From: Microbotryum violaceum
Taxonomy: Eukaryota
DNA: 64,000 bases
Direction of reading: 5' to 3'
Assembly: GCA_001244265.2 (NCBI GenBank)
Contig: CDLV01000016.1
Coordinates: 682,001-746,000 of the forward strand
The translations under genes and the position numbers were made by a program. This document shows positions 19,539 through 20,936 of this stretch, piece after piece. The notes under the pieces were generated by a model that was given only the letters and a program-made list of their open reading frames with translations, was not told where the DNA came from and made no database searches. Each line of letters opens with the position of its first letter. The stretch's first letter is position 1.

Positions 19539-20936
19539 TGTGAAGAGTCCACTCTCAGCTCGACAGAGGCGCCTCGGTCATCGCGCGCACCCGCTAGCCC
19601 GCCCCCTTGCGGTGGGGACTTAGGCGCGCGCGACAGCCTCAGCGAGCAGGCGCCAGCGGACTCGGGCGCGCGCCGCTAGGCCGCCCCCTTGAGGCGGCGA
19701 CTTAGACGCGCGCAGCTGCCTCGGCGCCCTAGCAAGTTCACCTGTGGCTGGGCCTATCCCAGTGCGGGCCCCTTTCTGTTTCTTAGCTTCCTCTCACCAC
19801 TTCTGTTCGACAACCAACCTCTCCTGACATTAGTGGTGATCGTCTCATAGGTATGCTGAAATAGACCACTTCTGTTCGACAACCAACCTCTCCTGACATT
19901 AGTGGTGATCGTCTCATAGGTTATTTGCCCAACGACCTACCGCTGGCATGGACGACACGTCGCCACCCCTAGCGACGGGTGTCCACCCGACATTTCCCGC
20001 CGACCAGCTTGCCGCCCTTACGTCGCTGCTGTCGGGTCTCACCGCTGCCGCGTCCGGCACTGTCACAACCACCACGTCGTCTAGTACCACTCGCCCCGCC
20101 TTTCCCAAGCACGCACACTTGGATGGGCCAAAGACATTTGCCAATTGGACACGCCAACTTTGCCTGTGCCTAGCGGACGACATCCGCTCGTACGTCCTCG
20201 ACGGCATCGTGCCCGTCGACTGGACCCCTTCGCAACGCTCTGCCCCCGATGTCGTGGCCCGCGAGCTTCTTGCAAACTCGATCGACTCGGCCGAAGTCTC
20301 GGCAGTCCTCGACGCAATCCCTACCGCTGACCTCACAGCGCCCAAAATGTACTCGACGCTGAAATTGCGGTATGCTCCTGACGACGCCACTTGCACGCTC
20401 GAGCTCTTCTCCCGACTGTGGAGTTTCCGGCCCATGCCCGGCACCGTTGGCGAATTTGACGGCTGGATCATGGAGTTCAAAGCTATTGCGCAAGAAATCA
20501 TCGATACGAAGACCACTATCAACGATGTTCTCGCCACACTCCTCCTTGCCATCGCTCACCCGTCCCTCGAGAGTTTCAAGGCGTCGTTCACGATGAACAG
20601 CGCACTCAACGAGCTCTCCCTGCCATTGATTCGCTCGCCGACCGCATGCGTGTTCAACTCCGGTCCACCAACGTCCCCAGCACCCAATCGGCCCTTCTTG
20701 CCTCGTCGTCACGTCCTAACCGTCCCAAGTGTCTCGCCTGTCGCAGCCCTTCGCACCGTGTGGCGGAGTGCCCTGTGAGAGCCGAACACCCGCCGCCAGG
20801 ACCCTGTCGCTCCTGCAAGCAGAATCACTGGTCTTTCGACTGCAAAAGGGCTCTCGAGAACGGCAAAAAGGCCGACACGGCGAACTCGACCGCCGACTCG
20901 CAACACCATGTCGGATGTATCGCCACCGGTTTTCTC
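19539..20936 (+). mobile_element. Copia family B, copy 3: complete long 5' LTR (19539-19918) plus gag, truncated
   Basis: TGTGAAGAGTCC...CTCATA, then PBS GGTTATTTGCCC. Gag ATG 19948 is homologous to 3886. Confidence 0.92.

Follow-up and report, generated by a model that had tools for sequence, protein, structure and literature searches.

The locus and its mobile elements

The window (the whole 64-kb stretch of Microbotryum violaceum DNA that was analysed) carries a sole host-like gene, a homologue of the clathrin-adaptor small chain (AP sigma) on the minus strand at 43650-44720. The remainder is made up of Copia, Gypsy (26.6-33.4 kb) and LINE-like (51.3-55.4 kb) elements, and a perfect (TCACT)x24 microsatellite, with an A-run before it, is found at 48924-49045. 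The first 25 kb form a nest of Copia elements belonging to families A, B and D. This nest includes an 11.8-kb direct segmental duplication, in which positions 1-7722 equal 11821-19539 at 99.77%; the duplicated segment holds the family A element A1, what remains of the family B copy B1 and one family D LTR, and it may represent either a real tandem duplication or an effect of assembly.

Family A encodes the domains Pol_BBD, gag_pre-integrs, rve, SH3_retrovirus and RVT_2 in that order; family B has Pol_BBD, gag_pre-integrs, rve and SH3 before its truncation, and family D has SH3 and RVT_2. The order protease, integrase, RVT_2, together with the two LTRs, the target-site duplication and the G-run before the 3' LTR of A1, is that of Ty1/copia elements. 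A further family, C, lies outside the nest:

58267-62740, minus strand: Copia family C, with 172-nt LTRs that are 96% identical and a TATA-like TTTATATT

In families A, B and D the LTR occurs in a long form, in which its end is present as two repeat units, and in a short form with one unit. Independent LTRs of these three families number eight (five long and three short), all of them in the one nest, and no duplication of the U5 end was found in the LTRs of family C. Contigs of the runs X4, X5, X15 and X16 were aligned to 19540-24960, giving 3027, 3790, 209 and 127 records, respectively; the DNA runs X4 and X5 yielded thousands of short contigs from these Copia families. Differences between the window copies and the run contigs over this interval were mainly transitions (T>C, C>T, A>G and G>A).

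A duplicated LTR end in family B

The Copia B copy B3 contains an exact direct repeat of 57 nt (ACCACTT...CTCATAGGT), in which 19796-19852 equals 19865-19921; the repeat measures 57 nt in full and 55 nt if it is cut at AG. Its period is 69, and the two units are split by a 12-nt spacer, ATGCTGAAATAG, at 19853-19864. Four occurrences of a 44-nt core of the unit were counted in the 64-kb window, as compared with zero expected from 100 shuffles. The features of this copy and of its short counterpart are as follows:

19539..19918, plus strand: long 5' LTR of B3 (TGTGAAGAG...CTCATA), 380 nt, with a start homologous to the family A LTR start TGTGAGGAATCC
19796..19852, plus strand: B unit 1 (U5a), comprising the final 54 nt of the LTR and GGT, and 100% identical to unit 2
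19853..19864, plus strand: B spacer ATGCTGAAATAG, which with the preceding GT reads as the donor-like GTATGC
19865..19921, plus strand: B unit 2 (U5b) of the 57-nt repeat, adjoining the primer binding site
19851..19919, plus strand: B intron-like segment of 69 nt (GTATGC...CTGAC...CATAG), with CTGAC at 19893-19897, missing from the short copies
19919..19947, plus strand: B primer binding site GGTTATTTGCCCAACGACCTACCGCTGGC, directly followed by the gag ATG at 19948
3803..3859, and the same locus again at 15622-15678, plus strand: short LTR of B1 with a single unit, its upstream LTR part broken by A1 and D1

The start of the B3 LTR is marked by the homology of the 11.8-kb duplication, which stops exactly at 19539, and by contigs of other copies, which meet foreign sequence near 19546. 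The LTR ends in CTCATA (19918) and is followed by GGTTATTTGCCCAACGACCTACC; the final G of the 69-nt segment is base 1 of the primer binding site. Since the LTR is followed by the primer binding site, the repeat is the U5 end of the LTR, and in families A and B each unit reaches three bases (GGT) into that site.

The initial annotation had described a 69-nt segment with a 55-bp repeat at 19851-19919, and the exact identity of the two units bears this out. The position that it gave for the segment at the end of the LTR, the borders AG/GT...CTGAC...AG/G and the presence of long and short LTRs in both families A and B were likewise seen. It had also reported two short B copies; 69 nt are indeed missing in both, but they form one locus inside the 11.8-kb segmental duplication and are to be counted once. 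In these copies (3803-3859 and 15622-15678) the one unit is followed directly by GGTTATTTGCCC, so that exactly 69 nt are missing, and the deletion end-points can be placed anywhere in the 57 nt, the repeat being exact. Independent family B LTRs in the window thus comprise one long and one short, and no 3' LTR of this family is present in the window.

The same architecture in families A and D

Family A was said to share the geometry of family B despite its different unit sequences, and this is the case: its units are also 57 nt long, with a spacer of 11 nt (ATGTTGTAATG) rather than 12 nt, a period of 68 and an insert of 68 nt rather than 69 nt. The family A LTR starts with TGTGAGG and ends with CGAATA; the primer binding site, GGTTATAAGCCCAACGAGCTACCAG, comes immediately after it. 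Element A1 (10332-15469) is inserted in the LTR of B1, has a 5-bp target-site duplication (CAGGC, at 10327-10331 and 15470-15474) and shows a G-run before its 3' LTR.

15174..15469 (duplicate locus 3355-3649), minus strand: long 5' LTR of A1, with units at 15295 to 15239 and 15227 to 15171
15238 to 15228 and 15241 to 15174, minus strand: spacer and intron-like 68 nt, respectively, of the A1 5' LTR
3352-3408 and 3420-3476 (= 15171-15227 and 15239-15295), minus strand: A units at the duplicate locus
10332..10558, minus strand: short 3' LTR of A1, with one unit and the end CGAATA
24578..24880, plus strand: A3, a truncated family A copy with a long 3' LTR, units at 24759-24812 and 24827-24880 and the spacer ATGTTGTAATG

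The 3' LTR of A3 ends in CGAATA and then meets unrelated flanking sequence. Several further observations were made on this family. The U3 part of its LTR contains about 2.8 tandem copies of a 39-nt unit (3520-3628, 10430-10537 and 15339-15451), with a variant of 47-nt period in A3 (24599-24716). At 24727-24880, a contig found at a depth of about 470 in each of the DNA runs X4 and X5 reads from the A LTR end through a G back to 24727; the LTR end of family A also exists, then, in a larger duplication of about 155 nt, which is rarer. In run X16, which is RNA by guess and bears another organism code, one contig lacks 95 nt of A3 at 21502-21596 with GT..AG ends, and a second lacks 101 nt at about 22550-22650, also with GT..AG ends; these are the only two X16 skip joints, and the other 12 joints listed, none of them from X16, are without such ends. 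The 95-nt stretch corresponds to about 13566-13660 (minus strand) of A1 and is coding, as it carries the integrase zinc-finger HRCLGH conserved between A and B. Because its removal creates a TAA at the junction, RNA spliced there would be predicted to encode Gag-protease only. Drosophila copia has a spliced gag RNA, of which the 95-nt skip in A3 is reminiscent.

The common architecture is real and extends to a third family. Family D, on the minus strand, has an LTR running from TGTGAGATC to TTCATA and a looser layout, with a 66-nt repeat and a 140-nt insert. In this insert, 75 nt of spacer are followed by another copy of the 66 nt that precede the insert, and the whole ends 15 nt short of the LTR end.

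7086..7525 (duplicate locus 18904-19343), minus strand: long 3' LTR of D1, after a polypurine tract, with the insert at 7241 to 7102 (GTGAGC...GAGCAG)
9993..10286, minus strand: short 5' LTR of D1, which has a single unit and abuts mid-pol through an internal deletion
20937..21371, minus strand: D2, a second long family D LTR with the 140-nt insert

Family D therefore contributes two independent long LTRs and one short. Its 75-nt spacer includes a partial third copy of the unit end (CTTGAGCAGG), then TGTGTAA. One low-depth contig (3.9) lacks 68 nt at 21022-21089, which would leave only that short spacer.

Comparison of units and spacers

The two units within one element are 96-100% identical. 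The units of A and those of B agree at 37 of 61 aligned columns (15/30 in the 5' half and 22/31 in the 3' half), and the spacer, including GT, is the piece best conserved between the two families, with 11/14 positions identical. This spacer similarity, the layout of D and the common geometry fit a retained architecture, and the likeness of A and B in both spacer and units points to a long form older than the split between the two families. The near-identity of the units would then mean either homogenisation, for instance through strand switching in which units are gained and lost, or a duplication that has been re-made repeatedly with a templated spacer. As a possible source of the spacer, no other copy was found in the window with two mismatches or fewer, except for one unrelated site at 46112; compared with the complement of tRNA-Met it shows no match beyond GGTATG, and none was seen by eye with the LTR start. 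The units are not a plain tandem copy around AGGT, as they are held apart by unique sequence (11-12 nt, or 75 nt in D). The idea of a hairpin was discarded, given that shuffled sequences fold just as well as the units do (z = -0.8, -0.7 and -1.6).

The differences that do exist between units are private to single copies and mostly involve CpG or G-to-A changes: an A in unit 1 of A1, two changes in A3, a T in unit 1 of D1 and a T at CpG in the short B copy. As they are private, crossovers cannot be placed within the window. Several of these changes are CpG to TpG, and the transition bias fits deamination-type decay of repeats.

Primer binding site

The putative primer binding site shows complementarity to tRNA-Met(CAU) over the anticodon and D arms, and would be of the half-tRNA type. 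No tRNA gene is present in the 64-kb window, and the comparison was made with prokaryotic tRNA-Met(CAT) genes on metagenome contigs: the family A site matches their complement at 24/25 positions, and the family B site has two more mismatches than A, at the anticodon. Family C has a site of the same kind, GGTTACGAGCCCAAC, after a TA dinucleotide. The scan of metagenome contigs with the motif gave 47 loci, most of which look like tRNA-Met genes on the opposite strand or chance matches, and ARAGORN placed a tRNA-Met(CAT) at the motif match in four of the seven loci checked. The site is read as a tRNA-Met primer binding site because the motif matches tRNA-Met genes on the opposite strand.

Relatives of the elements were not encountered in these collections. 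By tblastn, 0/47 metagenome motif loci encode a relative of the A pol or the B gag; in viral contigs, the upstream 34-mer was repeated downstream in 0/80 loci examined (of 108 motif loci), and a protein-based scan of viral contigs found no relative. Six metagenome loci (L005, L007, L009, L017, L024 and L043) carry the complement of the tRNA-Met 5' part, from the D arm to the anticodon loop, joined to unrelated conserved sequence. ARAGORN found no tRNA in L005 and L007, the two that were scanned, and loci of this type may be interrupted or intron-bearing tRNA genes.

Splice-like signals

In all three families the spacer starts directly after AG with a donor-like hexamer, giving TAG/GTATGT in A, TAG/GTATGC in B and CAG/GTGAGC in D, and family D has a second donor-like CAG/GTGTGT just before its second unit. 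The inserts end in ATAG (A and B) and GCAG (D). The branch motif CTGAC is kept in A and B, its A lying in B 23 nt before the acceptor G, and D has only a weak CTTAC. Base rates in this window were 0.048 for donor-like RHGY after AGGT, 0.010 for TRHGY after AGG and 0.05 for CTRAY in 25 nt. The splice-like borders are non-random, and a chance origin of the joint pattern in two independent lineages (A/B and D) appears unlikely even when post hoc choice is allowed for.

The host introns available for comparison are the five of the AP-sigma-like gene (43.7-44.7 kb), placed from frame breaks at about 182, 94, 71, 90 and 83 nt; they start with GTGCGT, GTGCGT, GTAATT, GTGAGT and GTAACT, and end in CAG or AAG. 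Set beside these, the inserts have the ends, donor and branch motif of U2-type introns (CTGAC in A and B; CTTAC in D), with lengths of 68, 69 and 140 nt as compared with about 71-182 nt in the five inferred host introns. Upstream of gag, ATGs occur only in the insert (at +58 and +66 in A, and at +58 in B). The short B leader has no upstream ATG, and A minus its insert likewise has none, as judged from the same positions. Each spacer also contains a mini-ORF, namely ATG TTG TAA in A (3409-3419), ATG CTG AAA TAG in B (19853-19864) and ATG TGG TAA in D (about 7202-7210, minus strand); the TTG/CTG change between A and B is synonymous. These mini-ORFs may be a side effect of the GTATG donor motif. 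The contigs of X4, X5, X15 and X16 include no joint that skips 19851-19919, and the listed pieces from the DNA runs, at about 120-170 nt, cannot bridge the 57-nt repeat, so that this absence is no guide to splicing or to the ratio of long to short forms.

Long and short LTRs

Both elements with two LTRs are discordant (2/2): in A1 the long form stands at the 5' end and the short form at the 3' end, and in D1 the arrangement is the reverse. The LTRs of A1 are about 98% identical over 227 nt, and those of D1 show one mismatch in 285 apart from the 140-nt insert. Long LTRs are also found at 3' ends (A3 and D1), from which it follows that the template RNA carried both units and that the module is copied by reverse transcriptase.

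The initial annotation had described the LTR as precisely shortened. Such precision is no evidence of splicing and is uninformative here, since the units are identical and strand switching, slippage, unequal crossing-over and splicing would all yield the same short product. Nor does a simple model in which short forms are copies of spliced RNA predict discordance in two of two pairs: a spliced template cannot yield any long LTR, so that the short LTRs of A1 and D1 either lost a unit while long RNA was being reverse-transcribed or afterwards, or derive from two co-packaged RNAs. Slippage or recombination had been named at the outset as the outcome that would speak against the claim, and this is in part what was found. 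Short forms keep exactly one unit, and one LTR of a pair is affected. Repeat-mediated loss during or after reverse transcription does occur, and the change from long to short is in part repeat-mediated.

Interpretation

Our preferred reading, held tentatively and at slightly below an even chance, is that of a leader intron born by duplication and lost by strand switching or splicing to give the short LTR. According to this proposal, a small clade of half-tRNA-Met-primed Copia elements would have in common a module at the U5 end, in which GGT of the primer binding site and the ~54 nt of LTR sequence that precede it are present twice with an 11-12-nt spacer between them. The long LTR would be the older, replicating form, and short LTRs would arise repeatedly through loss of the spacer and one unit. 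Three routes may lead to this loss: a switch of reverse transcriptase between the two identical units; slippage or recombination of DNA after insertion; and splicing at AG/GT...AG/G followed by reverse transcription. Most short LTRs would stem from repeat-mediated deletion. The module at the same time possesses the full signal set of a short spliceosomal intron arising from tandem duplication of an AGGT-bearing segment (Rogers model), and part of the transcripts would be spliced, with the module acting as a leader intron. Such splicing would restore the normal U5-PBS junction and rid the leader of the only upstream AUGs that it has. On this reading it would also have a function, and the unit would begin where transcription starts.

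Several points weigh against a leader intron. At 68 and 69 nt, the inserts of A and B fall slightly below the smallest of the five host introns (71 nt), and the branch motif of D, CTTAC, is weak. The module departs from a pure tandem duplication, and no source was found for its unique spacer. An intron needs only a donor, a branch and an acceptor, which leaves unexplained why the 5' halves of the units are 96-100% identical within an element and strongly different between A and B. The GGT that starts the primer binding site supplies the donor GT and the acceptor G for free. There are only eight independent LTRs (five long, three short) in a single nest, and the discordant pairs mean that splicing is not needed for short LTRs to form.

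The most serious alternative, which we consider doubtful, dispenses with splicing. The repeat would be a by-product of reverse transcription, namely a duplication of the strong-stop region (R-U5 plus the first three primer-copied bases) with a short filler, persisting by hitch-hiking or through a role in strand transfer and lost at a high rate by strand switching between the repeats. Its splice-like look would follow incidentally from the TAGG-T sequence at which LTR and primer binding site meet. In A and B the unit ends on its right side with GGT, bases 1 to 3 of the primer binding site; this is the point at which plus-strand strong-stop synthesis, if primed by a half tRNA, would reach the modified base next to the anticodon. 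In D, however, the duplication ends 15 nt before the LTR end and the argument from the primer edge fails, while the spacer still begins with GTGAGC after CAG. The left edge lies after a CT-rich block (TTAGCTTCCT), and a similar block occurs about 45 nt past the TATA-like box of family C, which fits a start of transcription at the start of the unit. Near-identical units are to be expected of a recent or repeatedly renewed duplication, discordant pairs fit events within reverse transcription, and the back-joint to 24727 in both DNA runs means that other duplications of the region exist. Against this explanation, independent events should not give A and B spacers matching at 11/14 positions, no template for the spacer exists in the window or, past GGTATG, in the complement of the tRNA, and donor-like hexamers stand at all spacer starts with low joint chance.

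The spacer might instead be another kind of processing signal, which we regard as improbable. It could set the R/U5 border in the 3' LTR as an element for polyadenylation or termination (TATGT...TGTAA / GAAATA), or act in the 5' LTR as a binding site for U1 that keeps 3' ends from forming prematurely, as U1 binding does at the major splice donor of HIV-1. No other stretch of the GC-rich LTR is as rich in A+T as the spacer, TG(T/A)AA occurs just before the second unit in A, B and D, and the element is absent from short LTRs; but the first part of the D spacer is GC-rich and starts with a plain donor hexamer, and the second U5 copy after the spacer is left unexplained. Even less probable is an origin of both forms, long and short, through DNA accidents after insertion (slippage or unequal crossing-over) in a rearranged and perhaps assembly-inflated nest, with no role in the life cycle: the region is heavily rearranged, with its 11.8-kb duplication, only eight independent LTRs and both B3 and B1 adjoining a D LTR, but the module is found in three families, in 5' and 3' LTRs and with a conserved spacer, and the D1 LTRs differ at one position in 285 apart from the 140-nt insert.

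The leader-intron reading may be taken further, into a version that we consider unlikely as a whole. The intron would derive from duplication of the whole R-U5 strong-stop region and would split the transcripts into two pools: spliced RNA, free of upstream AUGs, would serve as messenger, and unspliced RNA with the mini-ORF would be packaged and reverse-transcribed as the genome. Reverse transcriptase would keep the units identical, so that the intron is partly rewritten from its own exon in each cycle, and short LTRs would be a fossil record of spliced or strand-switched templates.

In LTR retrotransposons one transcript is both messenger and genome, and copying from spliced RNA loses introns. 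A leader intron whose 3' part is copied from the end of its exon would allow spliced and unspliced RNA alike to keep the same U5-PBS junction and LTR tip; the length of the LTR would then record the route taken by each copy. If real, the module would offer a simple natural system for studying splicing versus strand switching in retrotransposition, and a live case of intron birth by duplication.

Comparison with known systems

The Rogers model (Rogers 1989) derives new introns from the tandem duplication of a segment that bears AGGT, a process re-enacted experimentally by Hellsten et al. 2011 (PMC3265369); a case in the RdRp of potato has been reported (PMC4974935). As in introns of this type, the Copia insert resembles the preceding exon and runs from the GT of one AGGT to the AG of the next, and its removal exactly restores the unduplicated sequence. 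Unlike them, it lies in the untranslated U5 of an LTR and not in a coding exon, its splicing is predicted from sequence, and a unique spacer (11-12 nt; 75 nt in D) supplies donor positions +3 to +6.

Introns within LTRs have been addressed in a long-read study of maize, which claims the first evidence for such introns and holds that they are spliced (bioRxiv 10.64898/2026.05.08.723830). According to the same source, they have a mean of 1303 bp and belong to large LTRs with non-coding, LTR-contained transcripts (bioRxiv 10.64898/2026.05.08.723830). The Copia insert differs from these in its size (68-140 nt), in its location at the U5/PBS border and in being built from a copy of the exon end. 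In searches of the literature on LTR introns, no description of an intron in Copia U5 was found, as judged by title and abstract among the matches listed.

Drosophila copia and yeast Ty5 are Ty1/copia elements primed by a half tRNA (PMC5371799). The elements described here resemble them in domain order (Pol_BBD, gag_pre-integrs, rve, RVT_2) and in a putative primer binding site complementary to the anticodon stem-loop of tRNA-Met and not to its 3' end, and differ in that the complementarity extends into the D arm (about 25 nt). We know of no description of a duplicated U5 end in copia or Ty5.

Finally, retroviral reverse transcriptase is known from work with vectors to delete direct repeats by template switching. 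The Copia case is similar in that the template holds two identical repeats and the product one unit, and in that one LTR may be affected alone. It differs in that the repeat-bearing form persists in three families, with a spacer common between families, and persistence in the face of loss at a high rate calls for some advantage or renewal. If the module is unspliced, it would still be a clean case of a repeat that persists despite the high rate of loss expected in reverse transcription.
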